Source: Sphyrna mokarran
Taxonomy: Eukaryota
NCBI GenBank assembly: GCA_024679065.1
Contig: JAGIQG010000040.1
Coordinates: 8,866,001 to 8,930,000 of the forward strand
DNA: 64,000 nucleotides
Direction: 5' to 3'
Positions 19,839 to 52,573 of this stretch are shown here, in pieces (the first letter of the stretch is position 1; each line of letters starts with the position of its first letter). Made by a program: the position numbers and the translations under genes. The notes below the pieces were generated by a model. It did no database searches, had not been told where the DNA came from, and saw only the letters and a program-made list of their open reading frames with translations.

Positions 19839-19864
19839 GTGAGCTGAGAGATTGAAACAATAAA

Positions 19865-20590: not shown

Positions 20591-20959
20591 AATTGCATCA
20601 CCGTGTCTATCTCTAGTGGAGTGTACTAGTCAATATTTAGTATTCAGTGCATTAATGGTCTGCCCTGAACTAAAAGATTCTGGGCCGATCGATATTATAC
20701 GTGGAAGATTGATGTGTTGATGAATGAAAAAGTGAACTGAAGGCGATGTTATTGGGTTTAGATCAAAGAAGAAGCGAGGAGCCTGATGTGGAGCATAAAA
20801 AAAAAACAGAAAACCAAAAAGAAAAGTAGATCATTTGGACCGAATGACCTGATTCTGTGCTGTAAACTTTCTGAAACTTTCCAGTCCGCCCCTCCGAGTT
20901 GTTTGAGAAAATAATTGTGTCCACCTCTGCTCCAAGCTGGAAGTCAAAAATGGAAACGC

Positions 20960-22385
20960 TTAAAATGGAAACGCTGTTTAAAAAAGGTAGCCGACAAAAG
21001 GCAGAGAATTATAAGCCCGTTAATTTAACGTCTGTAGTCGGAAAAATGCTTGAATCCGTCATCAAAGAAGAAATAGAGAGACACCTAGAAAAGAACGTTT
21101 GAACAAGCAGACGCAGCAAGGTGTTTAAAGAATTTATTGGATTTTCTATGAGGATGTGACTAGTGCGGTAGATAGAAGGGAATCGGTGGATGTGGTGTTT
21201 TTAGATTTCCAGAAGGCCTTTGATAAGTTGCCTCACAAAAGGTTGCTGAAAAAAGTTGGGGTGCAAGGAGTTGGGGTAAGGTATTAGCGTGAATAGTGGA
21301 TTGGTTGTCTAATAGGAAGCAGAGAGTAAGACTCAATGGCTACAATTCTGGTTGGCAGCTGGTGACTAGTGGAGTGCCCCAGGGATTGGTGCTGGGGCCT
21401 CAACAGTTTACCATATACGTAGATGATCTGGAGGAAGGCTCTGAGTGAAGGTCACGAAATTTGATGATGACACGAAGATGAGTGGACAAGTAAATTGTGT
21501 GGAGAGTGTGGAAAGTCTGCAGAGAGATCTGGATGGATTGAGTGAGTGGGCGAGCATCTGGCAGATGGAGTATAATGTTAACAAGTGTGAGGTTATCCAC
21601 TTTGGTAGAAATAATAGTAGGAGGGATCATTACTTAAATGGTGAAAAGCTGCAGCATGCTCCGGTGCAGAGGGACTTGGGGATCCTTGTGCATGAATCGC
21701 AAAAACCCAGTCTGCAGGTGCAGCAGGTGATCAAGAAGGCGAATGGAATGTTGGCCTTTATAGGTAGGGGGATAGAATGCAAAAACAGGGAGGTCTTGTT
21801 GCAACTGTACAGGGCATTGGTGAGGCCGCAGATAGAGTATTGTGTGCAGTTTTGGTCGCCACATTTGAGGAAGGATATATTGGCCTCGAAGGGAGTGCAG
21901 AGAAGGTTCAGTAGGCTGATACCAGAGATGAGGCGTTTAGCCTATGAGGAGCGATTGAGTAGACTAAGTTTGTACTCGTTGGGGTTTAGAAGGTTGAGTC
22001 GGGATCTTATAGAGACATATAAGATAATGGAAGAGATGGATAAGGTAGATTTAGAGAAATTCTTCCCGCTTAGAAACGATAGCAGAACTAGAGGGCACAG
22101 CCTCAAAATAAGGGGAGAGGGCGATTTAGATTGGAGTTGAGGAGGAACATCTTCACTCAAAAGATGGTCAATCTTTGGAATCCTCTGCCCGTTGAAATGG
22201 TGGAGGCTACCTCGCTGAATATATTTAAGTCACGGGTAGATACGTTTCTGACAGACAGGGGAATTAAGGGGAGAAAGCGGGAAAGTGGAACTGATCCACT
22301 TCAGATCAGTCATGATCTTATTGAATGGCAGGGCAGGCTCGAGGGTCGAGATGACCTACTCCTGCTCCTATTTCTTATGTTCTAA
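20960..22385 (+). mobile_element. Older CR1 RT fragment shared by both arms
   Basis: NYKPVNLTSVVGK and KFDDDTK (FADD-like) motifs; internally deleted counterpart at ~55036-55805. Confidence 0.9.
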
Positions 22386-22482
22386 AATTGAAATTGCAGC
22401 ATGTTTTCCTGATATCTAACTTGCGGTTTCATTGTCTCCAGAATTCTCCAGTTTATTGACATTTATTGTACATTTTCTGCAG

Positions 22483-22874
22483 ATCCAAATCCACGGGAAC
22501 CGTTCGTCTCTGTCCTCCTGCCCTCCGCAGAAGCTATCTCCGCTCAGAGTTTCGTCTCCCTCAGCTGCTTAGTAAGAGGTTTCTCCCCCCGAGAGATTTT
22601 CGTCAAGTGGACCGTCAACGACAAGCCGGTGAATCCTGGGAACTACAGGAACACCGAGGTGATTGCAGAGAATGGCAATAACTCCTTCTTCATGTACAGC
22701 CTGTTATCCATTGCAGCAGTGGAATGGTCCAGTGGCGCTTCTTACTCCTGTGTGGTGGGACATGAAGCCATCCCCTTGAAGATCATCAACAGAACAGTTG
22801 ACAAATCCAGCGGTAAACACAGTTTTGTGAATATTTCCCTTGCACTGATGGACACTGTTAATTCATGTCAATGA
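22483..22874 (+). CDS. IGHM: Cmu4 exon plus secretory tailpiece, left copy (intact)
   Basis: [19 protein letters not shown]...[11 protein letters not shown]...[27 protein letters not shown] sequon and penultimate Cys present; internal membrane-form donor G|gtaaac after 22812. Confidence 0.96.
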
Positions 22875-22901
22875 GAATCACTCGCTTACATTAAAGACTT
22901 C

Positions 22902-22907
22902 AATAAA
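22902..22907 (+). terminator. Polyadenylation signal of secretory mu mRNA
   Basis: aataaa 28 nt after the stop codon; conserved in the right copy (~54510-54516). Confidence 0.75.
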
Positions 22908-23711
22908 AAAAAACGTTTCCTCTAATTATAAATGAAATACCAAATTGTTTAATTGATTGCTTTTCATTTTTACATCCATTATAAATTTTTAGTTTGAGTC
23001 AGATATTTTCAGGTCTTGGACCCAAATCTTGCTGAACCTGTGCGCCCTGCTCAGATACACCCAGATACAAAACAAATTAAACACATCATTACAGGATTCA
23101 GGAAAATATCTTCACAGTCTTTCATCCCACTGAGGAGAGATATGACAATTTCAACAATTCTGACAAACATACCATTTAGATCTCGGTGTTCCTGTTTCTC
23201 TCATTGTCCATCACTTTCTCCATTGATGACAGCTTTCAGCTGCTGCAGCACACCCACTGGGAACTGAAGTGAGTGTCACACAGAAACATGGAGCAACAAT
23301 CCCCCCATCAGAGAGAGGGAGAGTGAAATTGTCAACATACCGGATTCCTACTCAGCCAACAAGGAGAGGGGAGGCGCGACAGCTAACCCATGTACCACCA
23401 CTTCCTCAATGAAACGAGGAAGAATGTCAGTATTTAATCCACTCCACCTTCACCTCCTGGGTGGTTAGAACCATCAGAGACATTGCATTTCCGGATAGAC
23501 ACAAGTAAACTCTGAGCTCACTCTCCTCCCTCTCCCCAAATAGCGTGTTTGGAAGGGAACGACTCTCTACTATAAGGACCCAGTTCCCAACAGTACAAGT
23601 TAATTTCCGGTTTACTTGCTACAGATTTTGAAGTATCATTTCCATTATCAAAGTATCCTTGAAGTATATAAGACACACACACACACACACATACGCACAC
23701 ACATATAATAT

Positions 23712-24992
23712 ATAGAACATTACAGCGCAGTACAGGCCCTTCGGCCCTCGATGTTGCGCCGGCCAGTGGACCCTCTAACCTAAACTATTCCAATATTATC
23801 CGTATGCCTATCCACCGACCATTTGAATGCCCCCAAAGTAGGCGAGTCCACAACTGCTGCAGGCAGGGCATTCCACGCCCTCACCACCCTCTGTGTAAAG
23901 AACCTGCCTCTGACATCCGTCCTATAACCACCACCTCTTAATTTAAAGTTATGTCCCCTCGTGTTGGTCATCACCATCCGAGGAAAAAGGCTCTCACTAT
24001 CCACCCTATCCAGTCCTTTGATCATCTTATACGCCTCAATTAGGTCACCGCCTAACCTTCTTCTCTCTAATGAAAATAACCTCAGGTCCCTCAGCCTTTC
24101 CTTATAAGGCCTTCCCACCATACCAGGCAACATCCTGTTAAACTTCCTCTGCACCCTTTCCAATGCTTCCACATCTTTCTTATAATGCGGCGACCAGAAC
24201 TGTATGCAATACTCCAAGTGCAGCCGCACCAGAGTTCTGTGCAGTTGTAACATAACCTCACGGCTCCTAAATTCAATCCCTCTACCAATAAAAGCTAACT
24301 CACCGTACGTCTTCTTAACAACTTTATCAACCTGGGTGCCAACTTTCAAAGAGCTATGTACTTGTACCCCAAGATCCCTGTGCTCGACAACACTCATCCT
24401 ATTTCTGGATGAGTACATGGGATCCAATGGAATTGGGGGTTATAGATAGGTCTATGGCTGGGTAGGTTTTGATGTGTTCGGCACAACTTGTGGGCTGAAG
24501 GGCCTGTTTGTGCTGTAGTGTTCTATGTTCTATGTTCTATTAAGGGTCCCTCCATTAGCTCTATGTTTCATACGCCTGTTATTCCTACCAAAGTGAATCA
24601 CCTCACACTTATCCGTATTGAATTACATTTGCCACCTCACCGCCCAGCTCTGCAACCTATCTATGTTCCTCTGCAAACTGTAACATCCATGCTCGCTGTC
24701 TACAACTCCCCCCACTTTGATATCGTCAGCAAATTTACTAATCCAACCCTCTACACCCTCATCTAGGTCATTTATAAAAATGACAAACAGCAATGGCCCC
24801 AAAACAGATCCCTGAGGTACACCACTTGTAACTGCACTCCAGGTTGAATATTTCCCATCAACCACCACCCTCTGTCTTCTATCAGCTCGCCAATTCCTAA
24901 TCCAAACTACTAAATCACCTTCAATCCCATGCTTCTGCACTTTCTGCAGTAGCCTACCAAGGGGAACCTTATCAAACGAACCTTATCAAACG
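23712..24992 (-). mobile_element. CR1 RT/3' fragment, left arm only, with a nested + strand CR1 3' end (~24396-24540)
   Basis: ORFs 23780-24427 and 24623-24940 ([15 protein letters not shown]). Inserted in a (CA)n/(TA)n microsatellite that is uninterrupted at ~52520-52570. Confidence 0.92.
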
Positions 24993-25006
24993 CACACATA
25001 TGTGTG

Positions 25007-25056
<50 letters not shown>

Positions 25057-25379
25057 AAAATATTTCAACACTCTTGTTCCTGCTAATCATGTGCTGATAT
25101 TGATTTCCCGTAATACAAATTTAAACACACGACTGAATCCTCCCCGGATTTCACTATTCTGTTACTGAGGTTTCTGAGATGCACCAAAGAATTATTTCAT
25201 TCACTCTCTTGATATCGCCGTGCCCATTGCATAGAATAAACGTAAACAGCAAACTCTGAAAAATATGCTCCATTAGTCGGATTGTTTGGATCACGTTCAG
25301 TTAATAATTGCCGGTGAAACTTGGAGCAACAGTTAGAAAATAGACATACTGATAACACTGCACAAAACTCTCACAATTA

Positions 25380-26240
25380 GAAATACAGGTGTAGGCGTAC
25401 ACATACACACAAACACGAATATATCAACTCGCGCTTGTATAAACTGATACTAAAACAACAACAAACGTTGATAATCAAATACAAACAAAACACGGACACA
25501 TATACACATAAAACATAGAAGTTTGTACACTTACGTGAGAAGGTACACAAACCCAAACACTAACATAGACATGCATAGATACAATCCAGACACATGCATG
25601 AGACCCATATAAATGCATAAACACGCACGCGCGCACACACACACACACACACACATATCAAATAAGTTCCTCAAACATATATATTCATTAATTTATAGCA
25701 GACGTTCACGCTGACAGGAATCTTGATGTAGAGATACACAATGTTATACACATTAACAGACATATATGGAAATGCATATAAACAAATCAGCAGACTGCAC
25801 ATAGATGAATTGACAGCAAAACATTTGCACACGAACATGTAGACACAATCATTAACACGCTCATACAGAAGAGAACACCTTAGCACACATCATTACATGT
25901 CGAAACACAAACATATGTCAAGATATCGTTATAAAGAACTATCAACACGTATATACATTCATACATGTTAACAGGTACACACACAGACACATGGGGAAAC
26001 GGACACACACAGAAAGGGAAACAAACATTAATAGAATGACAGAAATTACAACATAGTAATAGATAGAAACACATGTGCACCCATTAAAAGTGGTATTAAC
26101 ACATGTATATAGAATTAACACAACAATAGTCATACATACATAATGACAGAAAAAAAAATATACACGGATGTAGACACACAACTAAACAAATCAACAAACA
26201 CAGGCAAATGAACGCGTGCATTAACGCTCTTGTACATATA
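25380..26240. repeat. AC-rich low-complexity tract
   Basis: Degenerate (AC)n/(ACAT)n; mirrored at ~51240-52080. Confidence 0.75.
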
Positions 26241-26875
26241 TTAACTCAGAGCCAAAGATGAGTGCAGACCACGAGATGCTGAAGCACACTCACATAAATG
26301 CAAAATCGTAAATACAAATGGTAGGTAAATGATGAAAGTAAAATTTAAACATGAATTTTAATGGCCATATTTACCAACATCTCGCCCAATGTACATTGCA
26401 CCAAAAACAAGTTGAGAAACTAAATTAAGCTAGTGATCTACTAACCATTTCCACCATAAATAAGAAAAGAATCGGAAATTATATCCTAGCTCTTAGACAG
26501 CAACATTCACAGTTTACAGATCAGTAACCATCTGTGAAAACAATCATTGATCAGTGAACGTTCCCCCATATCAGTCTCAACATTCTTCAATAAGAGTTAG
26601 TGCCAAATTGATCAAAAATGAACGGTTAGGCAAGAAAACGTCTTAGGGCTTCCTGATATGGATTGTCCATGGAATGTACATAAAAATCAACTGTGAAAAT
26701 AGTTATGGACATCGGTTATTGAGTGTCCTGAATTTGGCAGTAGATAGACATTAAAACTTATACAGAGAATAAATTAACAGTTTATGAGGGAGAACAGCGA
26801 ACAGAAAAAAGTAGCAATAAGATTCCCTGGATAAATAAAGTAATCTAATTTCAATTTCTGGTCTCCGCCTCCTAG

Positions 26876-27003
26876 ACCCCACCGACCGCATCTGGATTGA
26901 AGACAATGAGGATGATAACAGCAACATCTGGACAACTGCTTCTACATTCATCGTCCTGTTCTTCCTGAGCATTTTCTATAGCACTGCCGTCACTCTGGTG
27001 AAG
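26876..27003 (+). CDS. IGHM: IgM TM1 exon, left copy
   Basis: (D)[42 protein letters not shown] with CART motif; ag/gt boundaries. Confidence 0.96.
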
Positions 27004-27144
27004 GTGAGATGATTCAATTCGGTCACATTTCAAACTGGCAGAACGCATTTGAAAAAATCTCTCAATGTTTCACTGATTAAAAACTCTTAACATTAATGAA
27101 CCGCATCATAAACACCTGCTTCATTATTGTATCGTTATTTTCAG

Positions 27145-27153
27145 ATCAAATGA
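27145..27153 (+). CDS. IGHM: IgM TM2 exon (IK*), left copy
   Basis: ttttcag|ATC AAA TGA, giving a KIK cytoplasmic tail; conserved in the right copy. Confidence 0.9.
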   Translation: MK

Positions 27154-28654: not shown

Positions 28655-29335
28655 TCAGTCACAGAGTTCTACTGCATGGAAGCAGGCCCTTCGGCCCAAC
28701 ATATCTATGTCACCCTTTTTAAACTAGTGAAATGTTCCCTATTGCCCGCGTTTGGCGCATATCGTCGATAACCATCTTATTCGTGTAACTGTCATAGCGT
28801 TTTTTTTAAGACAAAATTATACTCGTCTGTACCACTACCTCTGGCAGCTTGTTCCAGAGATTCACGAATCTTTGTGTGAAAAAAATATACCTGTGGACTC
28901 TTTCATAACTCTGCCTTCTCACGTTAAACCTATACCCTCTAGATTTAGACACCAATGCAGTTGGGAAATGATACGCACTGTCTAACTGACCTATGCCCCA
29001 TATTACTTTATAGATCTCTATAAGATAGTCAATCAGCCTCCGGCACTCTGAAAAAAAAAAGCCTATCTAACCACTTCTTATAACTCAAACAATCAAACAA
29101 CCAGGAGCATATTTGCAAATCTTTTCTGCATTCTTTCTTATTTAATAATATCTTTCCTATAATAAAGTGCCCAGAACTGTACACAGTATTCCAATGTCTA
29201 GTACAACGCCTGCAGTCAATGTCCTCACCAATGAAACTGAGCATGTCGAATACCTTCTTCATCATCATGTCCACCTATAACTCCACTTGTAATGAGCTCT
29301 GACCTTGTATCCCTGGATCTCGATATTTTATAATT
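28655..29335 (-). mobile_element. Old degenerate CR1 3' fragment
   Basis: aggcccttcggcccaac tail and decayed ORF2 similarity. Confidence 0.75.
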
Positions 29336-30682
29336 TTCCTAAACGTCCTACTATTTTGGTGCTTTAGTGATTCGTGTTCAGCCCTTGCAGGTTCACAGGC
29401 TGGTTTCGATATATGAACAAATAATGTTTTTGATAAGCAACGCTGAATTGCTTCCTGGTCGAAAGCAATTCTGTCAGCATCAGTGGAGTGAAAATTTGAG
29501 GTTTTGCTTCCGAACTGGAGATGTCACATGGGCAACAGGCTGAGAACAAACACAGATAGTGAAAGGCAGTGATAGGATGCAAAGCTCTGACGATGTTGAC
29601 GGTGATTCAAGGTAAAAAAAAAACTGCGCGGTAACAGGTCAGATTTAACCGTGTACACTGACAGAAATGTCACTCATTTCTGGATGAAATTCTCGGGCTA
29701 AATGTCAAGAAAACTTCTCACTCTATTAAATATTAAATTATTTGACTTCATTCAGAAAGCAGTAATTGTGAGATTAACAAAGCGGGAGAGAAGAAAGCTC
29801 AGTTTGAACTGTGATACTGCTGGAGGAATGCAGAACTGAAGTTCACCCGGGAAAGCAGCAATGTTTAAAGTTAATGGGAAGCAATCACGCTGTTCTTGTC
29901 CATCATTCACTGTGTCAGATAATCCACCCTGTTTTGCTCGTTTTCACAAACTTTCTCTTGTATTTTCTCCACTGTGTGATTCCTGTCTTAAATGCCAAAA
30001 AAACCTCATCAGCTCAATTAATCTTTCGTGCGAAACAAGAACAATTCTGAAATCAGAATCATTTGGGAATGTTTCCACCAGGTTTTCAAATCGGGAGCTT
30101 GCACAAGAGGCCAACGTGATAATCACTACATTTCAGAAACAAGGCAATGCATGAATGCAGATTCGGCTAACTGGTGGAACATCTAAACTCGTTTCAAGAC
30201 CGCCAGTTACTCGTTTTGCATGGTTTCTGCAGGTTCTTCCAATCAAAATGAATAATGGTACATTCTATCGCATTCAATTCTAGTCATCACATGTTGGCCA
30301 AATGTGCTCATAACGTTTAATGTAACTTAAGTGAAAACCTGACAGTGGGATGGGGGGTGGGATTTGATCCCATTCCTCCACAAATATCGCTATCCTAAAC
30401 TTAGTCTCCCCATCAACGACATCAGCAGGGGTTATTGCAATAGGAACTGGCATTGGCTTTGAACAGGATCAAGGCAGTTGAATTAAATCACATTTCCCAT
30501 TGAGTCTCCTCCGCCATTTAAAATCAAGACGGATCCCCAGCTCAACAATCACCTCATTTCAGGAACCAATTCAGTGAAAATTAATTCCATCTAAACAGGG
30601 AGAGAATAGAAGGAACGAAAACAAAAGAGAGAAATAGATAATTGGACTGAAAGAGGAAAGACCAAGGCAGATGTGCAAAGAG

Positions 30683-31093
30683 AACATAGAACATAGAACA
30701 TTACAGCACAGAACAGGCCCTTCGGTCTTCGATGTTGCGCCGACCAATATAAAAAGCAATGCCCCTCCAAACTAAACCATTCCCTTCTCTTCCATATACT
30801 TATCAACTAACCTCTTAAACGCCACCAAACTTGGCGCCTCTACAACTGCTGCAGGCAGGGCATTCCACTCCCGAACCACCCTTTGGGTAAAGAACCTACC
30901 TCTGATATCGTCCTATAACTATCACCCCTTAATTTAAAGCTGTGTCCCCTCGTGCTAGCTTTCTCCATCCTAGGAAAAAGGCTATCACTGTCCACCCTAT
31001 CTAAACTTCTAATCATCTTATATGTTTCGATAAGGTCCCCTCTTAGCCGCCTCCTTTCTAACGAAAACAACCTCAAATCCCTCAGCCTCTCTT
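30683..31093 (-). mobile_element. Young CR1 3' fragment
   Basis: ERLRDLRLFSLERRRLRGDLIETYK; (atagaac)n tail. Confidence 0.93.
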
Positions 31094-31479
31094 CAGAAGG
31101 AAACAAATATAGAGGCAGAGTGGGGTAGTCAATGAACGGAACAGATACAGTTCACCATTCCTTAGGTTTTCAAGAAGGGAAAAACAAACAAACTTGGAAG
31201 CATTAGAAAGAGTAAGTATTACAGCCCTAAAAAAATAGTCTGGCAATTGATGCAGAAGAATTGAATTTTAGAACTTGCCGTAACCTTTGCTATGCTATTC
31301 CTCAGCTATAGCACTGGCACCTAACTGCCAATGATACAATTTGCCCAAGATTGCCCACTTTACAAAAACCAGTTCAAATCTAACACCACCAATAACCATC
31401 AGCCTACTCTTGATCACTAGTAATGTCATGGAAGAGGCAATAAGCAATAGTATCAATGGGTACCCCAATGCAAACTGGG

Positions 31480-32045
31480 GGAACATCACCCGATCTCCCG
31501 ATTCGGTACTTACTGCGTTCCGGACTGAACAATGCGTTCAACAACTTCAGAGCATCTCTTTTCCTCCATTTTCACCCCATTTCTTGTTATTTTGCTTCAT
31601 TTCATACATCTTATTTATTCATTTTTTTACTATTATATATTTTCATAACTTCCATTTCACATTGGTTATTTAAAATCTCGCTTTCTATCTTGTTGCCCCC
31701 CTCTCCCTCCACCCCACTCGGACCTTCTCTTACACTTTCTTTGTCCTGCCTTTTACACATTCTGATCTCCTAACAGACAACCATCAACACATTTCTTATC
31801 CACGCTCACTACTATTTAAATTCCGCTTGTTTTTGTATTTATATGTGAGTCTTCGCCACCAATCCAACAAGTATCCCTCACCATTACAGTATAAATAAAT
31901 GCCTTTGTCTTCAGCTCTGATGAAGTGTCATCCGGACTTTGAACGTTAGCTCTATTCTTCCTTCACCAATGCTTTCAGGTCTTTTGAGGTTTTCCAGCAC
32001 GTTAAGTTCTTCTTTCAGATTCCAGAATTTGCAGTAAATTTGTTC
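31480..32045 (+). mobile_element. Penelope-like element remnant
   Basis: Decayed ORF end SGLNNAFNNFR, a pyrimidine-rich tract, then ctgatgaagtgtcatccggactttgaacgttagc. Family assignment is from memory of Penelope-like termini. Confidence 0.55.
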
Positions 32046-32161
32046 ATATTTAGAAGCATTTCTTCTAATCCGCAGACAGAGTTGCCGCTGGTATATATAA
32101 AGAAATGCTGAAATAGAAACAAACGCCAGTAACATAGATTAGATTCAAAAATCTTGAAGGC

Positions 32162-32227
32162 ACCCTTGGTGTCCATTGGTTAGGATTCGGCGCATTCACC
32201 GCAGCGGTTGGATTCCCGGGCAGGGAA
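32162..32227 (+). pseudogene. tRNA-Glu(TTC)-derived pseudogene
   Basis: tggttaggattcggcgcattcaccgcagcgg...gattcccgggcagggaa matches vertebrate tRNA-Glu but lacks part of the variable/T stem. Confidence 0.8.
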
Positions 32228-32299
32228 TGAAGATTTCTTGTAGCACATGATTTATGTGGAGTTGGTGTTGTTTCCTGATCGAAAACATGAGTGATATTG

Positions 32300-33225
32300 G
32301 TGCCAGACTTGAGGTTGTGTGTTATGAGGAGCGACTGGATAAACCGGGACTTTTCTGGAGCGCAGGAGGGTGAGTGGTGATGTTGTAGAGGTCTACAAAA
32401 TGACTCTCAAAAGTGTAACGGCGGGACAGCTGACAAGTCATGGGAAGGCAGAATGAACGGCAGGATGTTTGGATGTACGGAAGAATATAGAGTCCTTGTG
32501 GTCCATATCCAAAGATCCGTGAAAGCAGCGGGTCAGATGAAGTGATAAGAGTTCACATGGTGTACTTGCCTTTATTAGCAGAGGTATTGATGAAAAGTGA
32601 TAGAATTGTGATAGCTGGAGCCGTATAAAATTCCCATTATGCCACGGTTAGTGTACCATGTGCAGGTTCATTAGGATGGTAATGGTGCCGAACCACTTTA
32701 ACAAGGAGAATAAGTTCGAATCACTACACATTCGAGGGTTCGGTTCACTACACATGCAGATGTGGTTCTATTGGAAAGGATATTAAGGGCATTCAACAGG
32801 GTTCTGCCTGGGCTGAAATTTGCGGCAATGAAAAGAAGCTGGATAGGCTGGCGTTATTTTCCTTAAAGTTGAGAAGAATGAGAGGGGCCGCACTGATTTG
32901 TACCAAAATATGAGGGAGATGCCAGATGAGAATAACCATTACCCTTAATAAAGGTATCAATAAGCAGGGGCATGGATCTAAGGATAGGAGCATGATATTG
33001 ACTGGGGATTTACGGAAAAAAAGAACAAAACAAAAACTCGTTAACCTAGAAAATGGTGAGAATTGAGAACTCACTGCCAGAAAGTACGACAGGAGAAAGA
33101 ACCCTCATACTTAAGAAGCATTTAGATGAACACTTGAAACCTCGGAGCATGCAAGGAAGCGAATCAACTATTGCAAAATGGAATGTGATTAGATAGGGGT
33201 TATTTGGCCGAAGGGCCTCTTTCAA
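32300..33225 (+). mobile_element. Old degenerate CR1 fragments
   Basis: Decayed ORF2-like sequence ending in ttggccgaagggcctct; partly mirrored at ~47800-48445. Confidence 0.65.
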
Positions 33226-33442: not shown

Positions 33443-34332
33443 TTACCCAGTGACCTTGGTGAAGGGCCACAGCAGAACCTTCTTCAGGTCCTCTCGGAAT
33501 TTGGCCTGAGAGACTACGTAGATGAAGACGTTGTTGCAGGAACTGACTAGCTGAAGCAAGTTTGCTGTTTCCTGAAAGATGTACCGGGGGTCTTTGAAAT
33601 CCAGACTGGTGCGGTAACCCTCACCTGTAATCAGAACATAGAGGAAGTGTATGACAAAGGTGACCCAGAGGAGGAGGAAGCTGAGGGCGATGGCGAAAAG
33701 CAGGATGATGGACCTCTTGCGGTTGGCCATCTCTGGGTCCCCGTGACTCTCCGTGCCCCGGAGTCTCCTGCGAGCTCTGCTGGCCGCTAAGATGTGTTTT
33801 ACGGTCAGAGCGTTAAGAAGCAGGATGAGGAGGAACGGGAGAAACGGAGTTAAGATGCTATCCAGCCAGTCAAATGCCTGCCAGGCGGGCACTGTGTAAT
33901 AACTGGACTTAAAAGCACAGAACCAGGGCACCCCGTCCAGGATGTACAAAGGCTGGTAAGCGAAGTAGAAAGGGACATTCCTGACACAGCTCAGGGTGCA
34001 GACTATTCCTATAACCAGCAATGCTGTTTTCTCGGTACAGTATCTGGTCTTCAGCCTCTGGCAGCAGATGGCCACAAAACGGTCGATGGTGAAAGCCACT
34101 GTCAACCAGACAGATGAATCCCGTGTAAAATAGACCAGCAGATTGCTGAATGTACATGCAGGGGTGGTTGACAGGACGCTGTTCTGAAAGTAGATGCGGC
34201 CAATCCGGTTGAGGATTACGGCAGTGATGATGACAAGGAAATCAGTCAATGCTATCGCAATAAGATAGTAGGTGATGCATCGTGACAGTCCGCACCGTCC
34301 TCGGGATAAGATTATGATCGTCACCAAGTTGG
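33443..34332 (-). CDS. GPR139/GPR142-like class A GPCR, copy A, exon 2 (intact)
   Basis: Acceptor ctcacag; ANLVTIIILSRG..., IALTD, TPAC, SVWLTVAFTIDRFVAIC, WFC, LTPFLPF, NNVFIY, FREDL. With exon 1 the CDS is 960 nt (319 aa). Confidence 0.92.
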
Positions 34333-35460
34333 CTGTGAGATAGAAAGAGAGAGAGAGAGGTGTTACTGAGATGGCTGTAAACACCAACTGCTGCGCTAAC
34401 CAAACAGTTACTGAGAACAACCTCATCCTTCAGTTGCCAACTCCAGTCTCCAGTGATTGGAAAGTCTTGGCAATTAAGTTATTTTGAATTAGGGCAATCA
34501 GTCCAAATTGCAACTCTGCTCTCTGATCACTGAATTGATCCGCTCAGATAACTATCAAATTTCAGATTTCCGAAAATTTGTTGTCATTATTCTTATTGCT
34601 ACTAATCGCATCCATCCATCAGCCTATTAACCCCCATTCATTTCTGTTTTTATAATCTCGCCCTTCAAATTTTAAACTCCTCCAACATCTCACCTTTTTA
34701 GATTTTGTTAACATGCTACAACTATCTGAGATCACACCATATCTCTGATGTGGACTTCAATGCCCCTGATTTTCAGTGTTCCTTTACCTGCCGAGACCCT
34801 AATCTCTGGAACTCCTTCTTTCAAAGACTACACTTTCCCTTTGTGCTTCAGAACGATGCTCAGAAAAATAAATTCATTGAACAATTCTAAGTCATTTTGT
34901 CTGTCAGTAAAAGTTGATTGGTTGAAGCCTTGTGAAGTATCCCCATTCTACTTATCCGAGTGTCCGAAGAAACAAACGCCTCATCGCCTTCTCAAATGAA
35001 AGCTGGAGATGGACAAGACATTTTCTTGCCATATCTACATGCATACAGTTAGTGATTAAAATATAATTATCTGACATTTACCAGACTTACTAACACAAGA
35101 TAAAATGCAAATGCATAACCCCCACATATTTTCAAAAATTTCCATAATTAATTCTTAAAACTTCAGTAACAACGTGGAAGCCCAGTGCTCAGAACTAATC
35201 AATGATTACGAACTGCTGGTGGTCGCAGCATAGATTCATGTATCCACTGATGTTCTACGTCTAATTGAATTACTAGATTGCAATAGCTCATTTTCTGAGA
35301 TTGTGCATACCAGTGGATGAAATACAGATCACTTTACTGAAAACATTGGATCACGCTTTACTACATTCAAGTAAAACCAAATGTTCATCAATAAAAGGTT
35401 AATGTTTATGCAACGCAATATATTTCAAGTCATGAGAACTATTTGGGATCTTTCACCTAC

Positions 35461-35530
35461 CGGGAACACCAATAGCAGCGAGAATGGGATAAGAAATGGC
35501 GAAGAAGATACCTTTCGCTGGTCCATGCAT
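35461..35530 (-). CDS. GPR139-like GPCR copy A, exon 1
   Basis: MHGPAKGIFFAISYPILAAIGVP, phase-1 donor gtaggt; completes the TM1 GVP-AN motif; conserved in copy B. Confidence 0.88.
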
Positions 35531-35712
35531 CCTCTCCTAGAAAGTGAAATGAAGTTTAAACCTGAGTTTCGCGGTGGTTTCATTGTGCCCCACATTTATT
35601 CTGAGTGAGCGTCTCCAGAGGAATAATTAAGTTACAACCTGCACCTTAGTTACAGGTCGGTGAACAAACAGATTCGCTCATTGTTTTGTACCTCCACATT
35701 GCACCATTGGCA

Positions 35713-37520: not shown

Positions 37521-37573
37521 CTTTTATTCGAACCACCAAGGACTTCTTTATGGCTCGTACCACCAAGGCACCC

Positions 37574-37646
37574 TGCCAAAACCCGGGTTCGAACCACGGA
37601 CCTTTAGATCTTCAGTCTAACGCTCTCCCAACTGAGCTATTTCGGC
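37574..37646 (-). tRNA. tRNA-Phe(GAA), three deviations from the canonical vertebrate sequence as I recall it
   Basis: GCCGAAATAGCTCAGTTGGGAGAGCGTTAGACTGAAGATCTAAAGGTCCGTGGTTCGAACCCGGGTTTTGGCA, 73 nt. Confidence 0.88.
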
Positions 37647-37834
37647 TGCCTGGTGAGCTGAAGCTTCCATCTCCCAAATATATAAGAGAGCAATGATATC
37701 TGCCTATTCAATAATGCATCATTTTCATCTTTCTTCGAATAACTGCAACCAAATATCTCAGAAATAAAAGCAAATTGCTGCGGATGGGAAAAGAGAAAAA
37801 GGTGCAAAATCTCACACTATCTGAGAGCACCTGT

Positions 37835-40800
37835 AAGGAGTGAAAAGGCGGATATTTCCAGTCCTGATGACCCTTTATGAAAGCTCATTGTACATTTGTA
37901 CTCAATATTCGTTTCAATATTTAGTATCAGTGTATTATTTAGCACATATGTCTTCATTATGAATTGAATATCTTTGAAATTGAGCATCAGTGAATTGAAA
38001 ACATAACTGACCAACAGAACGAACCCAATCAACGGGTAATACAGACTGCAATTCTGAGATTGAATATCGTCAGCCTTTAAACGAAGTCAACTCCATTTAA
38101 ATGGAGGAAAATCAAGAATTATCTGTTAGTACCCCTTGAGCCTTTTTTATTATGGATGTGAAACATTCAGGCGCATAAATTCCGGCCCGTTACAGGAATA
38201 TCCAAAAGACTCGCGCAGAGTCTCGACTCCCTCGTCTGTCTCAATGTCTTTTCCTGTTTCTTAGTGATAAAAAGCGATTTAAAAAAAGATTCTTCTTTGA
38301 AATGTGCACCATTTCCCCAAGTTCACTTACAGTATCACATGTATCTGTCTGTTTGAGCACACACTACTATCAGATATTTCAGATGGTGATTAACCATATC
38401 AGTCTGCACCTATAAACCCATTAAAGTCTGTTGTAGACTGAACGAGATGCGAATATGTGCTCGGTGTCAAAATCCAACTTTCCTGTCTGTGCGTCAAAAA
38501 ATGCGTACCTCATTTCGCAGAAAGCATTTGAGGGTGAAGTCAGGGCAATGATAACATGTCTTTAAGGATCATGGCAAGTCTCACAAGGACTGGCAGCATC
38601 TAGAAGGAGTGAAAGGAGCTGACGTTTCGAGTCGAGATGACATTTTGTCAAAGCTCATTGTACAATTGTGCACAGTATTTGTTTCAATATTCAGTATCAA
38701 TGTATTATTGAACACATATGTCTTCATTACCAAATGGCTTATGTCTCGAATTGAACATCACTAAATTGCAAACATAACTGGCCAAAAAAATGAATCGAGT
38801 CACCGGGTAATACAGATCGCAACTTTAAAATTTAGCAGTCAGTTTTTTTTAAAAATCAACTAGATCAAACTGCAAGTGATTTAAGAATTATCTGTTGGTG
38901 ACCTTTGAGGCTTTTTTGTTATGGGCGTGAAACATTGAGGCACACAAATTTCTTTATAGGAAAATCAAGTAGGTCCGCGCTGAGTATCGATTACCTCATC
39001 TTCAAATGCTTCAGTCGGAGGAGAGAAGGAGGTAGAAGGGGGGAGGAATGGCATTATTAGTCAAAGACTGTATCACAGTGACAGAAAAGAAGTTTGATGA
39101 GGACTCGTCTGTTGAGGTAGTATGGGCTGAGATTAGAAACAGGAGAGGAAAGGTCACCCTGTTGGGAGTCTTTTATACACCTCCTAAAAGTTCTAGAGAG
39201 GTAGAGGAAAGGATTGCAAAGTCAATCCTGGACAGGAGTGAAAGTAATAGGGTAATTGTTATGGGGGACTTTAACTTTACTAATATTGATTGGAATAGCT
39301 ATAGCTCTAGCTCGTTAGAAGGGCCAGTTTTCATACAAAGTGTGCAGGAAGGTTTTTTGACTCAGTATGTAGATTGGCCAACTAGAGGTGAGGCTACATT
39401 GGATTTGGTGCTGGGCAATGAGCCAGACCAGGTGTTAGGCTTGGAAGTTGGTGAACATTTTGGTGATAGTGACCACAATTCGGTTACGTTCACCTTAGTG
39501 ATATATAGGGATAGGCATGAAGCTGGGGGTAGTAGTTATAGCAGGGGGAAGGGTAATTATGAGGCCACAAGGAGAGAATTAGGGTGCGTAGATTGGACTA
39601 GGAAACTACAGGGAATGGGAACATCTGCAATGTGGAGCTTATTCAAGGAGCAGCTGCTGCGAGTCCTTGATAAGTATGTCCCTGTCAGGCAAGGAGGAAA
39701 TGGTCGAATACGGGAACCTTGGTGTACGAAAAAAGTTGATTCGCTGGTTAAAAGGAAAAAGGAGGCTTATGTCAGGATGAGGCTTGAAGGCTCGGATAGT
39801 GCAATAGATAGCTATAGATTAGCCAGGAGGGAGCTAAAGAGTGAGTTGAGGAGAGCTAAGAGGGGACATGAGAAGACTTTGGCTGATAGGATTAAGGAGA
39901 ATCCTAAAGCTTTCTTTAGATATGTTAAGAGTAGAAGATTGGTTAGGGCAAGATTCGGGCCAGTCATGGACAGCAGTGGGACGTTGTGCGTGGAGCCTGA
40001 GGAGATTGGAGAGGCACTGAATAAATAGTTCTCTTCGGTATTCACGCAGGGGGATGTAAATGTAGTTGTGGTACAGGGTTGCAAACTGGAAAGTATTGAA
40101 GTAGACAGGGAGGATATGCTAGATATTCTTGAAGGTTTAAAGTTGGATAAGTCCCCTGGGCCGGACGGGATTTACCGTAGGATTCTCTGGGAGGCAAGAG
40201 AGGTGATTGCAGAGCCTCTGGCTCTGATCTTCAGGTCGTCATTGTTTACGGGTATGGTTCCGGAAGATTGGAGGATAGCGAATGTGGTCCCATTGTTCAA
40301 GAAGGGGAAGAGAGACCTTTCAGGGAATTATAGGCCAGTGAGTCTTACTTCTGTTGTGGGCAAAGTATTGGAGAGAATTTTTAGGGATAGGATTTATAGT
40401 TATTTAGAGAGAAATGAATTGATTGGGGATAGTCAGCATGGTTGTGTGAAGGGTAGGTCGTGCCTTACTAACCTTATTGAGTTTTTTGAAAAAGTGACCA
40501 AAGAGGAGGATGGGGGTAAGGCGGTTGAGGTGGTATATATGGACTTTAGTAAGGCGTTCGATAAGGTGTCCCATGGAAGGCTTCTGCAGAAAATGCAGAT
40601 GTACGGGGTAGAGTGTGATTTAGCTAATTGGATTAGGAATTGGCTAGCAGATAGAAGACAGAGGGTGGTGGTTGATGGTAGATATTCATCGTGGAGTTCG
40701 GTTACAAGTGGTGTACCTCATTGGGTCTGTTTTGGGGCCCCTGCTGTTTGTAATTTTTATAAATGATCTGGATGAGGGTATTGAAGGATGGATTAGTAAG

Positions 40801-42030
40801 TTTGCAGGTGATACTAAAGTCGGTGGAGTGGTAGATAGTGAAGAGGGGTGTTATAGTTTGCAGAGAGACTTGGACAAGTTGCAGAGCTGGGCCGAGAGGT
40901 GGCAAATGGAGTTTAATGTGGAAAAGTGTGAGGTAATGCACTTTGGCAGGAATAATAAATGTGCAGAGTATAGGGCTAATGGTAGGATTCTTAATAGTGT
41001 TGATGAACAGAGGGATCTTGGTGTATTTGTGCATAGATCCCTGAAAGTAGGCAGTCAAGTCGAGAAGGTTGTTAAGAAGGCATATGGAGTCTTAGCTTTT
41101 ATTGGTAGGGGGATTGAATTTCGGAGCCGCAACGTCATGTTGCAACTTTACAAAACTCTAGTGCGGCCGCACTTGGAGTATTGTGTGCAGTTCTGGTCCC
41201 CACATTATAAGAAAGATGTGGAGGCATTGGAGAGGGTACAGAGGAGGTTTACCAGGATGTTGCCTGGTATGGAGGGCAGGTCTTATGAGGAGAGGCTGAG
41301 GGATTTGAGGTTGTTTTCGTTAGAAAGGAGGCGGCTAAGAGGAGACCTTATTGAAACATATAAGATGATTAGAGGTTTAGATAGGGTGGACAGTGATAAC
41401 CTTTTTCCTAGGATGGAGAAAGCTAGCATGAGGGGACACAGCTTTAAATTAAGGGGTGATAGTTATAGGACGGATATCAGAGGTAGGTTCTTTATCCAGA
41501 GGGTGGTTAGGGAGTGGAATGCACTGCCTGCGGCAGTTGTAGATGCGCCAAGTTTGGTGGCGTTTAAGAGGTTAGTTGATAAGTTTATGGAAGAGAAGGA
41601 AATGGTTTAGTTTGGAGGGTCATTGCTTTTTCTTAATTGGTCGGCGCAACATCGAAGGCCGAAGGGCCTGTTCTGCGCTGTAATGTTCTATGTTCTATCT
41701 GTCAGATTGGTTTTTCCTGTTTCTTAGTGCTGGAAAACGATTTAGAAAAGATTCTTCTTTGAAATGTACGTCATTTCCTCTAGTTCACTTACAGTATCAC
41801 TTGTATCTGTCTTTTTGAGCACACACTACTATCAGATATTTCAGATGTTGATTAACCATATTAGTCTGCACCCATAAACCCATTAAATTCTGTTGTAGAC
41901 TGAACGAGATGTGAATATGTTCTCGGTGTCAAAATCCTGTTTCTGTTAGTGCATCAAATAAAAAGTGTTCCTTATTTCACAGAAATCATTTGAGGGTGAA
42001 GTCAGAGAAAAGATAATATGCCTTTAATAT
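37835..42030 (+). repeat. ~750 bp direct duplication (37835-38565 versus 38604-39000 plus 41697-42030); second copy split by a CR1
   Basis: aaagctcattgtaca and tttcctgtttcttagtg...gattcttctttgaaatgt...agggtgaagtcag present in both copies. Confidence 0.85.
39001..41696 (+). mobile_element. Young CR1 LINE, 2.7 kb, 5'-truncated: partial AP endonuclease plus RT; one stop (40026-40028) and one frameshift (~40720)
   Basis: MGDFNF, LDLVL, SDHN endonuclease motifs; [30 protein letters not shown]; (ttctatg)n tail. Confidence 0.97.
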
Positions 42031-42096
42031 CGAGGTTCGGAAAACGTTGAGCAACTAACAGCTTTCTCCTTACTCGACATGGGAAAGCCTAATGAA

Positions 42097-42169
42097 TATT
42101 TCTGCCTGGTTTCGAACCAGGGACCTTTTGCGTGTTAGGTAAACGTGATAACCACTACACTACAGAAAC
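42097..42169 (-). tRNA. tRNA-Val(AAC), CpG-decayed, probably a pseudogene
   Basis: GTTTCTGTAGTGTAGTGGTTATCACGTTTACCTAACACGCAAAAGGTCCCTGGTTCGAAACCAGGCAGAAATA; anticodon and acceptor stem mismatches. Confidence 0.8.
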
Positions 42170-42467
42170 AGCTTGATGTATGTTGCAGCAAATCTGCCTG
42201 TCTGTAATGTTCAACTCCGCTGTTTTGCTGCAGGTTCCGATGGTTAGACTGAGAGCCCATGTCGCTTAATTCAGGAAGATAACCGTTACTTTCCATCTGA
42301 TTGCAGCTTTATCCAGAACATCAAAATTTAAAAGTGTTCGTCTCTCAAATATCTAAGGGAGCAATGATTTCTGCCCATTCATTAATGGATCATTCTGATC
42401 TTACTCTGAATAATCTCAATCAATTGTACTCAGTAATAAAAGCAAACTACTGCATATACTAGAAATA

Positions 42468-42529
42468 GTTTTGAATCAGGAAACTTTCGCGTGTTGGATG
42501 AAAGTGATAAAGACTACATTATAGAAAGA
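42468..42529 (-). pseudogene. More degraded tRNA-Val copy in a ~360 bp tandem unit
   Basis: gttttgaatcaggaaactttcgcgtgttggatgaaagtgataaagactacattatagaaa; the flank repeats 42170-42400. Confidence 0.65.
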
Positions 42530-42750
42530 GCTGGAAGCAAGAAACAGCAACCCTGCCTACCTGAATTGTTCAACTACGCTGTGTTGCTGCAGGTTCCAAC
42601 GGTTAGAGCCCATGTCACTTAATTCAGGAACATAATCTTTACTTTCAATCTGATTGTACAACTTATCTTGAACATCAAAATTTAAAAACATTCTTCTGGC
42701 AAATATCGAAGGGAGAAATGATTATTGCCCGTTCAGTAATGCGGCATTTT

Positions 42751-43185
42751 CATCAGTGTACTCACACTAGGGAGAGACCGTTCATCTACCCTCAGTGTGG
42801 GAAGGGATTCACTCAGTCCCTAATCTGCTGACACACCAACAGATTCACACTGAAAACAGACTATTCATCTGCTCTGAATGTGGAAAGGGATTTGTGCAAC
42901 CATCCAACCTGCTGATAAACAAGTGCGTTCACACTGGGGAAAAGCCATTCACCTACCCTGAGTGTGGAAAGGGATTTATTCGATATCACATGTGCTGATA
43001 TACCAGTGAGTTCACACCAATGAGAGATCATTTTCCTGCTCCGAATGTGGGAAGGGATTTATTAATTCATCTTCTCTGCAGACAAAATACCGAATTTACA
43101 CCGTGGAGAAATCTTTCACATGCTCCACATGTGCAAAGTGTTTTGTTCGATCATAAAGCCTGCTGGTACACCAGCGAGTTCACAG
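42751..43185 (+). pseudogene. Tandem C2H2 (Kruppel-type) zinc-finger pseudogene fragment, about 5 fingers
   Basis: HQQIHTENRLFICSECGKGF...HTGEKPFTYPECGKGF with frameshifts and lost Cys/His ligands. Confidence 0.88.
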
Positions 43186-43334
43186 ATCACTGCACTGCTC
43201 TGATTGTGCGGCTGTTTATCGGATTCAGGACTGAACTTTGCTCATTACCCCATTGGTGAAATATTGATGATGCTGCTGCTAAGAGGCTGGAGTTGATAGA
43301 ACTTGCATTTATATAGCAACTTTCACAACCTCAG

Positions 43335-45452
43335 GTGAGAGCAGAAACTGTCAGGTATGGGCACAAACGAAAAGTGCAACTCTTTCAAGGGACAAACACT
43401 GCGTGCCCTTGATAGGTATGTCCCTGGCAGGCAGGGAGGAAATGGCCAAGTGAGGGAACCATGGTTCACAAAGGAGATTGAATGTCTTGACAAGAGGAAA
43501 AGAATAAGTGTACGCAAGGATGAAAAAAAAAGGTTCCGTTGGGTCAATTGTGTGTTACAATGTAGCTAGGAATGAGTTAAAGAAAGGACTGAGGAGAGAT
43601 AGGAGAGTGCATGAGAAATACTTAGCAGGTTGGATTAAAGAAAACCCCAAGGCTTTTTACTCTTATGTAAGAAATAAAAGAATGACCAGGGTGAGGTTAG
43701 GGCCAGTCAAAGATAGTAGTGGGAACTTGTGCATGGAGTCAGAAGAGATAGTTGAGGCGTTGAATGAATACTATTCTTCAGTGTTCACTAAGTAAAGAAG
43801 CCATGTTTTTGAGGATGTGTGTGTCATACAGGAAGATAGGATCCAGGAGGTAGATGTTCAGAGGGAAGATGTATTAGCAATTTTGAAAAGCCCGAGGGTC
43901 ATAAGTCCCCTGGATCAGATGGGATACATCTTAGGATACTTTGGGAGGCAAGGAATGAGATTGCAGAGACTTTAGCTTTGATCTTTGGTCCTCACTGTCC
44001 ACAGGGATAGTACCAGAGGACTGGAGAGTGGCAAGTGTTTTTCCTGTTTTCAAGAAAGGAAATAAGAATGTCCCTCGTAATTATAGGCCAGTTAGTCTTA
44101 CTTCAGCAGTCGGTAAGTTAATGGAAAGAGTCCTGAGAGATAGAATTTATGACCATATGGAAAGATTCACTTCAATGCAGGACAGTCAGCACGGTTTCAT
44201 GAGGAATAAGTCCTGTCTCACAAATTTGATTGAATTCCTTAAGGAGGTAAATAAGTGTGTGGACGAGGGTAGAGCTGTTGATGTTGTACACATGGATTTT
44301 AGTAAGACGTTTGATAAGTTTCCTCGTGGTAGGCTCGTGAAGAAGATACGGAGCTGTTAGATAGAAGAAACTTTGGTCAATTGAACAAGTAACTGGTTGT
44401 AACGTAGAAGACAGAGGGTGGTGGTGGAGGGAAAGTTTTCAAACTGGAGGCCAGTTACTAGCAGTGTACCACAGGGGTCAGTGCAGGGTCCTCTGTTTTT
44501 CTGGGATTTTTATCAATGACTTGGAAGAAGGGGCTCAAGGGTGGGTTAGTAAATTTGCTGACGAAACCAAGATTCGTGGAGTTATGGATGAGGTGGATGG
44601 CTCTTGCAGGCTGCAAAGAGACATTGATAGGCTGCAGAGCTGGGCTGAAAAGTGGTAGATGGAGTTTAAACCTGATAAGTGTGAGGTGATTCATTTTCGT
44701 AGGACAAACTCGAATGCAGATTACAGGGTCAACGGCAGGGTTCTAAGGAATGTGGAGGAACAGAGAGATCTTGGGAATCATATCTACAGATCACTGAAGG
44801 TTGCCACTCAAGTGAATAGAGTTGTGAAGAAGGCTAACAGTGTGTTAGCTTCATTAACAGGGGGTTTGAGTTTAAGAGCCATGCAGTTATGCTGCAAATA
44901 TACCGGACGTTGGTGAGACCACATTTGGTGTATTGTGTTCAGCTCTGGTGACCTCATTAAAAGAAGAATGTAGAAACATTGGAGAGAGTGCAGCGGAGAT
45001 TTACCAGGATGTTGCGTGGTTTGGAGAGTAGGTCTTTGAGGAAAGGTTGAGGGAACTGGGGCTTTTCTCTTTGGACTGGAGGAGGCGACTTACTGGAGGT
45101 TTATAAGATGATGAGAGGAATTCGTAAAGTGGACGTGCAGAGAATATTTCTTCGCTTCGATGTAGCGTGTTACTAGGGTGCATAAATAAAAGGTTCAAAT
45201 ATGGTGGGAGTTATAGGAGGGATGTCCAAGGTAAATTCTTTACTCATAGAATGATTGGAATGTGGAATAGGCTGCCTGCTATGATCCTGCAGTTGGACAC
45301 TTCAGGAACTTTCAAGCGGTTATTGGATAGGCACATGGAGCACTCCAGAATTATAAGGAGGAAATAGCTTGACCTTGCGATTGGACATAGCTCGGCACAA
45401 CATCGAGAGCCGAAAGGCCTGTAGTGTGCTATAATGTTCTTTGTTTCTATGT
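43335..45452 (+). mobile_element. Decayed CR1 ORF2 fragment at the inner end of the right arm
   Basis: IKENPKAFY, NYRPVSLTS and KFADETK motifs; several stops. Confidence 0.93.
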
Positions 45453-45635
45453 TTGCCAATGGTGCAATTTCGAGGTTCCAAACAATGAGTGAATCTGTTT
45501 GTTCACCAGCCTGTAACTAAGGTGCAGGTTCCAACTTAATTATTCCTCTGGAGACGCTCACTCAGAATAAATGTGGAACACAATGAAACCACCGCCATGC
45601 TTAGGTTTGAACTTCATTTCACTTTCTGGGAGAGG

Positions 45636-45705
45636 ATGCATGGACCAGCGAAAGGTGTCTTCTTCGCCATTTCTTATCCCATTCTCGCTGCCATTGGTGT
45701 TCCTG
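45636..45705 (+). CDS. GPR139-like GPCR copy B, exon 1
   Basis: MHGPAKGVFFAISYPILAAIGVP, donor gtcggt. Confidence 0.85.
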
Positions 45706-50334: not shown

Positions 50335-50343
50335 TCATTTGAT
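50335..50343 (-). CDS. IGHM: IgM TM2 exon (IK*), right copy
   Basis: ttacag|ATC AAA TGA on the - strand. Confidence 0.9.
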   Translation of the reverse strand: MK

Positions 50344-50481
50344 CTGTAAAATAATAATACGTAATGAAGCAGATGTTTGTGATGCGGGACATTAATGTTA
50401 CAGTTTTTAATCAGTGAAACATTGAGAGATTTTTAAATCCGTTCAGCCAGTTTCAAATGTGACCGAATTGAATAATCTCAC

Positions 50482-52517: not shown

Positions 52518-52573
<56 letters not shown>

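Follow-up and report, generated by a model that had tools for sequence, protein, structure and literature searches.

We analysed 64,000 nucleotides of the genome of the shark Sphyrna mokarran (assembly GCA_024679065.1, contig JAGIQG010000040.1, positions 8,866,001 to 8,930,000; the whole stretch is called the window below), in which two copies, A and B, of a G-protein coupled receptor (GPCR) gene lie beside two immunoglobulin M (IgM) genes. Copy A is a class A (rhodopsin-like) GPCR. The reading that we prefer, and hold to be probable, is that copy A is an intact member of a large orphan receptor family of sharks and rays that was duplicated with the neighbouring IgM gene, likely as a passenger; it would likely have its own promoter and sense a chemical ligand that differs from the one recognised by GPR139, the receptor whose name its relatives carry in databases. 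The most likely process behind this is ordinary birth-and-death turnover in a mixed region of immunoglobulin heavy chain (IgH), T-cell receptor (TCR), zinc-finger, tRNA and GPCR genes.

What makes the locus interesting is that a very large family of shark receptors, misleadingly named in databases, is apparently threaded through the IgH/TCR-alpha/delta region. This region is central to models of the origin of adaptive immunity and has been described, in the main text of the study cited below, without these receptor genes. If they are lymphoid genes, they would form a hitherto unknown immune receptor family. If they are sensory, they would be an independent parallel to the olfactory receptors at the mammalian TCR locus.

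The receptor, its family and the inverted duplication

Copy A has two exons on the reverse strand (Table 1), separated by a GT/AG intron of 1,128 nt and ending in a TAA stop. The exon junction lies in the first transmembrane helix (TM1), at GVP/AN. At its N-terminus, a catshark relative shares 21 of 24 residues (residues 1-24) with exon 1, and exon 2 matches the Pfam family 7tm_1 with an E-value of 7.7e-21 and 75.2 bits, well above the cut-off of 30.5. The original prediction of a fully open gene of 319 residues with a very short N-terminus is confirmed. Further hallmarks of class A receptors are present, e.g. the D107-R108-F109 triplet and the cysteines C83 and C162 that belong to TM3 and extracellular loop 2 (ECL2). 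A structure model of exon 2 (pLDDT 84.7) has a class A peptide-receptor fold, with a TM-score of about 0.7 to class A receptors. The product is predicted to be a seven-helix receptor with almost no N-terminus that would signal through G proteins, as DRF is kept at positions 3.49-3.51.

The family is large, as the original prediction had stated for sharks: 930 of 3,988 candidates match the receptor at an E-value of 1e-10 or better. Among the best 120 of these 930 relatives, identities range from 52 to 90%, every protein that is named to species comes from a shark or ray, and most are automatically named 'probable GPR139'. We built a tree of 129 rows from copy A, 116 of the 120 matches and 12 cluster members; copy B and four matches without a species were excluded. 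Six Mustelus asterias proteins, from six different contigs, form a clade with copy A (SH-aLRT 98, seven rows), and the sister of this clade consists of four catshark proteins (SH-aLRT 99 for the clade of 11 rows). In this tree, copy A is nested with strong support within the shark and ray expansion named after GPR139. Shark and ray proteins listed as 'probable G-protein coupled receptor 139' (e.g. Mustelus asterias XP_078056651 and Scyliorhinus canicula XP_038644636) are 83-90% identical to copy A and share with it the very short N-terminus, the junction in TM1 and the pocket signature described below.

Two further observations concern the ends of the coding region. Both receptor copies and their six Mustelus orthologues have a C-terminus (33,443-33,460 in copy A) that is four residues shorter than in the catshark relatives; it marks this subfamily and could serve to map it. 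An open frame at 34,333-34,429 extends from exon 2 into the upstream intron, and in four of the six Mustelus RefSeq models it provides the start of the protein instead of exon 1. Many database N-termini of the family are probably mis-predicted.

A self-comparison of the window finds a single large inverted duplication, of 11 collinear blocks at 83-96% identity, a match far beyond chance. LINE (long interspersed nuclear element) insertions private to one arm break up these blocks. The outer ends of the duplication lie beyond the window, so the duplicated unit is at least 24 kb long. Both aligned arms take in the receptor and the exons for the IgM constant domains (C-mu) and membrane segment (TM1 and TM2 of IgM); receptor and IgM were therefore duplicated together here, as had been proposed. 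In each arm the two genes stand tail to tail, the receptor being transcribed towards its IgM gene. In the left arm 6,289 bp separate the receptor stop from the IgM TM2 exon, and in the right arm 2,746 bp lie between the homologous point of copy B and TM2, which agrees with the 6.3 and 2.7 kb given for two-exon receptor genes in the original prediction. The distances differ because the left arm alone carries a 3.5-kb block. A contig from another shark (run X3) passes the corresponding point of the right arm without this block, extending 68 letters beyond it; therefore the 2.7-kb spacing, judged by this one contig, is likely the older configuration.

Copy A is the only intact gene among the two receptors and two IgM genes; the other three are frameshifted. 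The left IgM gene was already known to be multiply broken, and we find the damage to be a frameshift in the leader and the loss of 2 nt in C-mu1. Beyond the earlier account, the right IgM gene is broken too (8 nt are missing from C-mu2), and copy B lacks 11 nt after TM7 as well as the conserved ECL2 cysteine. Contigs from two other sharks (runs X9 and X12) have 11 extra letters at the site of the copy B deletion.

We propose the following history. The block that was duplicated in inverted orientation is at least 24 kb long and includes an IgM and a receptor gene. Both gene pairs may then have been under selection for part of the time, with ratios of non-synonymous to synonymous substitution rates (dN/dS) of about 0.5 each, before the left IgM gene, the right IgM gene and receptor B presumably died independently, in a course of birth and death. 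The neighbourhood of IgM and receptor would go back to a long-standing mingling of IgH, TCR, zinc-finger, tRNA and receptor genes on the same chromosome and would not be a functional unit. The unduplicated centre of the window, which has tRNAs and a zinc-finger relic, fits such a mixed region.

Passenger, cassette or immune gene

We read the receptor as a passenger because its family is likely scattered through the antigen-receptor region of sharks. In this region IgM, IgW, IgNAR, TCR-alpha/delta and UrIg2 genes form one complex, the AgRC, and the IgM miniclusters, with many pseudogenes among them, are spread over megabases (Flajnik et al. 2025, PMC12227049). The terms GPR, GPCR and 'G protein' are absent from the main text of that study, and its Table S1 lists only genes of antigen-receptor type and psmb5. 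The window resembles the AgRC as described there in its IgM miniclusters, pseudogenes included, and differs from it in that two C-mu sets lie 23 kb apart, tail to tail, together with GPCR genes.

For other sharks, we inferred the placement of receptor genes relative to the AgRC from accession order and scaffold lengths, not from coordinates. RefSeq accession numbers generally follow genome order. In the great white shark, receptors XP_041031385/387 (79% identical to copy A), on a record of 20.36 Mb, compare with UrIg2 XP_041031358 and a chromosome 27 list that runs to 17.1 Mb. In the epaulette shark a receptor lies on a scaffold of 5,136,515 bp, to be compared with a TCR scaffold with genes up to 5,118,634, and nine more receptor proteins have accessions (XP_0606773xx-0606780xx) that bracket UrIg2 XP_060677870. 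The small-spotted catshark has a receptor on a scaffold of 4,928,731 bp, against an IgM/TCR/UrIg2 scaffold with genes up to 4,783,337. Finally, receptors XP_072357335-417 of the cloudy catshark share one record of 330,819,199 bp with an 'Ig heavy chain Mem5-like' model of the Ig-heavy/TCR-delta type (XP_072357606). This was the only usable match from protein searches for shared contigs, which returned 34 of 168 candidates with C-mu4 and 15 of 159 with the heavy-chain variable (VH) domain, almost none of them chromosome-level RefSeq models. Taken together, these accessions and scaffold lengths suggest that close relatives of copy A reside on AgRC scaffolds in four sharks, and the link between receptor and antigen-receptor genes seems to be older than the duplication in the window.

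A comparable mixture is known from mammals, where olfactory receptor genes are interspersed with TRAV segments of the TRA/D locus (PMC2275272). In both cases an antigen-receptor locus is interspersed with GPCR genes of a multi-copy family. The mammalian genes differ from the shark receptors, which are of another family, contain an intron and stand beside IgH constant exons and not V segments. The two are likely independent cases.

Several points weigh against the preferred reading. The AgRC placement follows from accession proximity and scaffold lengths and not from coordinates. Two cloudy catshark receptors, XP_072363712/725, are far off in number (about 6,000 accessions separate XP_072363725 from the Ig model), and further members of the family lie on other large chromosomes. 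Non-coding divergence between the arms is 8-10% around C-mu, 12% around the IgM TM exons and 13-15% around the receptor. With more divergence on the receptor side than on the C-mu side, the arms are perhaps not simple sister copies, or the IgM side has undergone homogenisation; conversion among IgM clusters may explain the gradient, as may arms that come from different members of a larger family. The upstream motif described below could be read by EBF1, reported as a B-cell marker in the bamboo shark, and the ligand class is a prediction. Finally, only 2.7 kb separates receptor and IgM, which stand tail to tail, and contigs of other sharks contain sequence resembling the whole spacer between them (in each of four runs, 29-30 of the 30 bins are covered), which would also fit an old repeated cassette. 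As for its extent, the divergence gradient spans 17.3-37.5 kb against 43.6-59.5 kb of the window.

The last point raises the possibility that IgM and this receptor subtype are a repeated cassette, amplified many times in ground sharks (houndsharks and catsharks) by proximity alone and without shared regulation. This is the alternative that survives best, though we consider it doubtful. The tight tail-to-tail spacing is found in what seems to be the older configuration, the spacer-like sequence in other sharks runs along its full length, and the six near-identical Mustelus orthologues lie on six contigs, five of them shorter than 1.5 Mb. However, among the contigs listed from seven runs against the right arm, none bridges the receptor and TM2, and the spacer has repeats. 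Summed depth over these contigs (run X1: 248-384 at the receptor intron and 484-897 at the 3' flank of TM2; run X5: 25-56 and 954-1,995) does not measure copy number and carries no weight here. Moreover, nurse-shark IgM miniloci are reported to be at least 120 kb apart, and no such gene is named in the accessible text of that study (PMC2435157). A cassette of this kind is compatible with the preferred reading, as a sub-case of it.

We judge it improbable that the receptor works in lymphocytes, where it would tune or guide B cells under regulation shared with IgH (a common 3' enhancer or an EBF programme), and that this keeps the linkage. The arrangement of receptor and IgM is tight and convergent, and the receptor family probably resides in the AgRC of four sharks. 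In addition, an identical 19-nt motif stands upstream of both receptor copies, on the side away from IgM. In both copies it reads as a TAATTA core of homeodomain type and, after it, a presumed O/E(EBF)-like site that departs from the consensus at one position. EBF-family factors act in olfactory neurons. They are at work in B cells also, ebf1a being a B-cell marker in the bamboo shark (PMC11372145), and therefore the motif does not decide the tissue. There is also a precedent for receptors of chemosensory type in shark immune tissue: the catshark odorant receptors or1 and or4 are described as spleen-specific (PMC11979771).

On the other side, copy A is intact beside a dead IgM gene and copy B is dead. 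Neither the two spacers between receptor and TM2 nor the two receptor promoters contain an octamer, EICE, NF-kB or strict EBF site, as defined by consensus sequences; the same scan found one octamer (10,382) and one EICE in the intron between the joining segment and the constant region (J-C intron) of IgM. The single-cell supplements for the bamboo shark (PMC11372145), as far as they were searched and describe their genes, contain no 'receptor 139' row, while other 'probable G-protein coupled receptor' rows and IgNAR are present; this is a weak test, as markers are mostly genes found in at least a quarter of cells, weakly expressed GPCRs escape such lists and some rows have no description. The shared B-cell regulation raised in the original prediction thus finds no support in the motif scan or, by this weak test, among the described bamboo-shark markers. 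A bolder version would give the antigen-receptor chromosome a third, non-rearranging repertoire: an orphan GPCR subfamily amplified with IgH miniclusters as a cassette, switched on in the B lineage by the EBF-like promoter and providing lymphocytes with a chemosensory code linked to the antibody locus. We regard it as distinctly improbable.

Could the receptor itself be what was selected? Between the arms, the pairwise dN/dS is 0.50 for the receptor (bootstrap 0.29-0.89; 314 codons; dS 0.087) and 0.46 for the IgM constant exons (0.29-0.73; 471 codons; dS 0.104), both with kappa 2; over kappa values of 1-4 the ranges are 0.44-0.56 and 0.39-0.52. Copies A and B differ at 28 amino acids, 10 of which changed in A and 16 in B, with two ambiguous; these counts do not differ significantly (p 0.33). 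Their quality does. None of the 10 changes in A, but 7 of the 16 in B, the loss of the ECL2 cysteine included, led to residues that are rare (<2%) among the 120 relatives (Fisher p 0.023). Judged by these substitutions, copy A is likely under purifying selection, which answers the earlier question of whether it evolves neutrally. It is the sole intact gene and its changes are conservative, as would be expected if the duplication had been kept for a second receptor copy with IgM as the passenger. Yet copy B is dead, i.e. the duplication added no working receptor, and the dN/dS of IgM is as low as that of the receptor. Therefore the data give no sign that the duplication was kept for the sake of the receptor, contrary to one proposal of the original prediction, and we consider this explanation very unlikely.

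The ligand pocket and the name GPR139

The name 'GPR139-like', under which the receptor was first described, matches the automatic database name, which ESM Atlas also gives to copy A. It is an automatic label and does not stand for orthology. In the Protein Data Bank (PDB), the best sequence match of copy A is human GPR139 (E 7.8e-9), at about 23% identity (a count by eye gives 65 identical positions in 280 residues). A Foldseek search does not favour GPR139, which ranks 44th with 20% identity. For comparison, zebrafish GPR139 is reported to be 70% identical to the human protein (PMC7318219).

Pocket positions were numbered by our own count from R3.50, P5.50 and W6.48. In the literature on GPR139 and GPR142, R6.51 is described as confined to these two receptors and as a contact of Trp/Phe in docking (PMC8807744), and F3.33, H5.43, W6.48 and N7.38 as required for their activation (PMC5430874). 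At 6.51, copy A has F249 and 96 of the 120 relatives have Y, with R outside the six commonest residues. At 3.29 and 3.32, where GPR139 has the acidic E3.29 and E3.32, copy A has N and V. Among the activation positions, W246 (6.48) and N281 (7.38, the equivalent of N271) are kept, with Y at 3.33 and D/S at 5.42-5.43 instead of H. The family has a polar set of its own, i.e. R3.36 (103/120), D3.37 (104/120), D5.42 (97/120) and E7.35 (118/120). With R3.36, D3.37, D5.42, E7.35 and Y/F6.51, the predicted pocket would suit a short peptide or a small molecule that is either polar or zwitterionic.

By its residues, then, the receptor is of the GPR139 type in architecture, that of a small-ligand receptor, but falls outside GPR139 itself. 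The likeness to GPR139 and GPR142, as these are described, extends to the class A seven-helix fold, two exons, W6.48, N7.38 and an aromatic residue at 3.33. GPR139 is highly conserved, with the identity between human and zebrafish just given, whereas the shark family is multi-copy and turns over fast. True orthology of copy A to GPR139/GPR142, with sensing of Trp/Phe, can practically be set aside: GPR139 is its best PDB sequence match, W6.48 and the N271 equivalent are kept and both genes have two exons, but against this stand the low identity to human GPR139 and the replacement of R6.51, E3.29 and E3.32, with Y6.51 in most relatives. Sensing of aromatic amino acids, as suggested for this gene by analogy with the mammalian receptors, would thus not be expected from a pocket that lacks R6.51 and the acidic TM3 residues.

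Relatives beyond the sharks are distant. A search over representatives at 50% identity gave 106 matches at 1e-30 or better, and among 10 matches that we looked up the nearest non-shark proteins are from a salamander (35%), a coelacanth (31%) and a teleost (30%), all with the same automatic name. The nearest named concepts are GPR210A/B (Rinne et al. 2019, PMC6504862) and 'Orphan 139-like' (PMC5207463), which likewise cover previously unnamed vertebrate relatives of GPR139/142. In the text available from these papers they comprise few genes of bony vertebrates, and no shark expansion is mentioned. Our literature searches (GPR139 with sharks or chondrichthyans) found no published study of the shark and ray family or of its apparent residence in the AgRC, though the catshark atlas and part of the whale-shark supplements could hold one.

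IgM genes and other features of the window

Table 1. Positions of the receptor genes, IgM genes, duplication arms and neighbouring features in the window
Feature	Position	Strand	Remark
GPCR copy A exon 1	35461-35530	-	70 nt; short N-terminus, first part of TM1
GPCR copy A exon 2	33443-34332	-	Remaining 7TM domain to stop; open frame, 319 aa with exon 1
Putative promoter motif, copy A	35612-35630	-	19 nt, 82-100 nt upstream of ATG
GPCR copy B exon 1	45636-45705	+	
GPCR copy B exon 2, pseudogene	46710-47588	+	Frame shifted after TM7 by 11-nt deletion near 47,530; no ECL2 Cys
Putative promoter motif, copy B	45536-45554	+	Identical to copy A motif
Left arm of inverted duplication	13422-37520	+	Self-comparison; outer end unreached, inner end within shared LINE upstream of GPCR
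Right arm of inverted duplication	43647-64000	-	Self-comparison; continues past window end
3.5-kb block, left arm only	29074-32561		Arm alignment
Left IgM V-D-D-J	6879-8601	+	
Left IgM leader	6879-6917	+	39-nt exon out of frame, stop at codon 9
Left IgM VH exon	from 7048	+	23-bp recombination signal sequence (RSS) at 7353
Left IgM D1	between RSSs at 7763 and 7782	+	
Left IgM D2	near 8153-8164	+	Degenerate signals, by eye; no scan call
Left IgM JH	from 8553	+	
Left IgM constant region	17797-27153	+	
Left C-mu1	17797-18094	+	2-nt deletion at second Cys
Left C-mu2	18303-18614	+	
Left C-mu3	19530-19838	+	
Left C-mu4 and secretory tail	from 22483	+	
Left IgM TM1	26876-27003	+	
Left IgM TM2	27145-27153	+	
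Right IgM constant region	50335-58962	-	V-D-J would fall beyond window end
Right C-mu1	58962-58663	-	
Right C-mu2	58455-58152	-	8-nt deletion
Right C-mu3	57245-56937	-	
Right C-mu4 and tail	from 54935	-	
Right IgM TM1	50609-50482	-	
Right IgM TM2	50343-50335	-	
Unduplicated spacer (centre)	37521-43646		6.1 kb; tRNAs, LINE, zinc-finger relic
tRNA-Phe in centre	37574-37646		
LINE in centre	about 39.0-41.7 kb		
tRNA-Val in centre	42096-42170		
Decayed C2H2 zinc-finger exon in centre	about 42,760-43,190		

The IgM genes were compared with IgM of Triakis scyllium, to which the left copy is 72-95% identical per exon; for the C-mu exons of both arms the range is 75-95%. The elasmobranch minicluster layout, with V-D-D-J, four C-mu exons, a secretory tail and TM1/TM2, is complete in the left copy, and the right copy has its constant region only within the window. 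Functional IgM has an open leader and open constant exons; neither copy does, given frameshifts in the leader and C-mu1 on the left and in C-mu2 on the right. We found no extra V segments and no third receptor copy within the 64-kb window.

The two IgM constant regions end 23 kb apart, tail to tail (27,153 and 50,335). This is unusually close when set against the published nurse-shark spacing given above, though both genes are dead. The left J-C intron (8,601-17,797) is 9.2 kb long, compared with 6.3-6.8 kb reported for the nurse shark (PMC2435157). It hosts two pairs of direct repeats, 8,895-9,279/9,478-9,846 and 10,748-10,978/12,062-12,281. A long simple repeat rich in CACT (about 14.8-16.1 kb) is common to both arms.

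A stretch at about 32,165-32,235, in the block private to the left arm, looks like a tRNA by eye, but ARAGORN and Rfam made no call there and we do not annotate it. In the centre, the tRNA-Val has a decayed tandem copy (42,109-42,400 against 42,468-42,754, 78% identity). The LINE of the centre is bounded by direct repeats of 330-430 bp, and the inner ends of both arms lie within a shared older LINE. Lastly, one database protein assigned to Aeromonas veronii, from a contig of 742 bp, has 95% identity with shark C-mu4 and is likely host contamination of a bacterial assembly.

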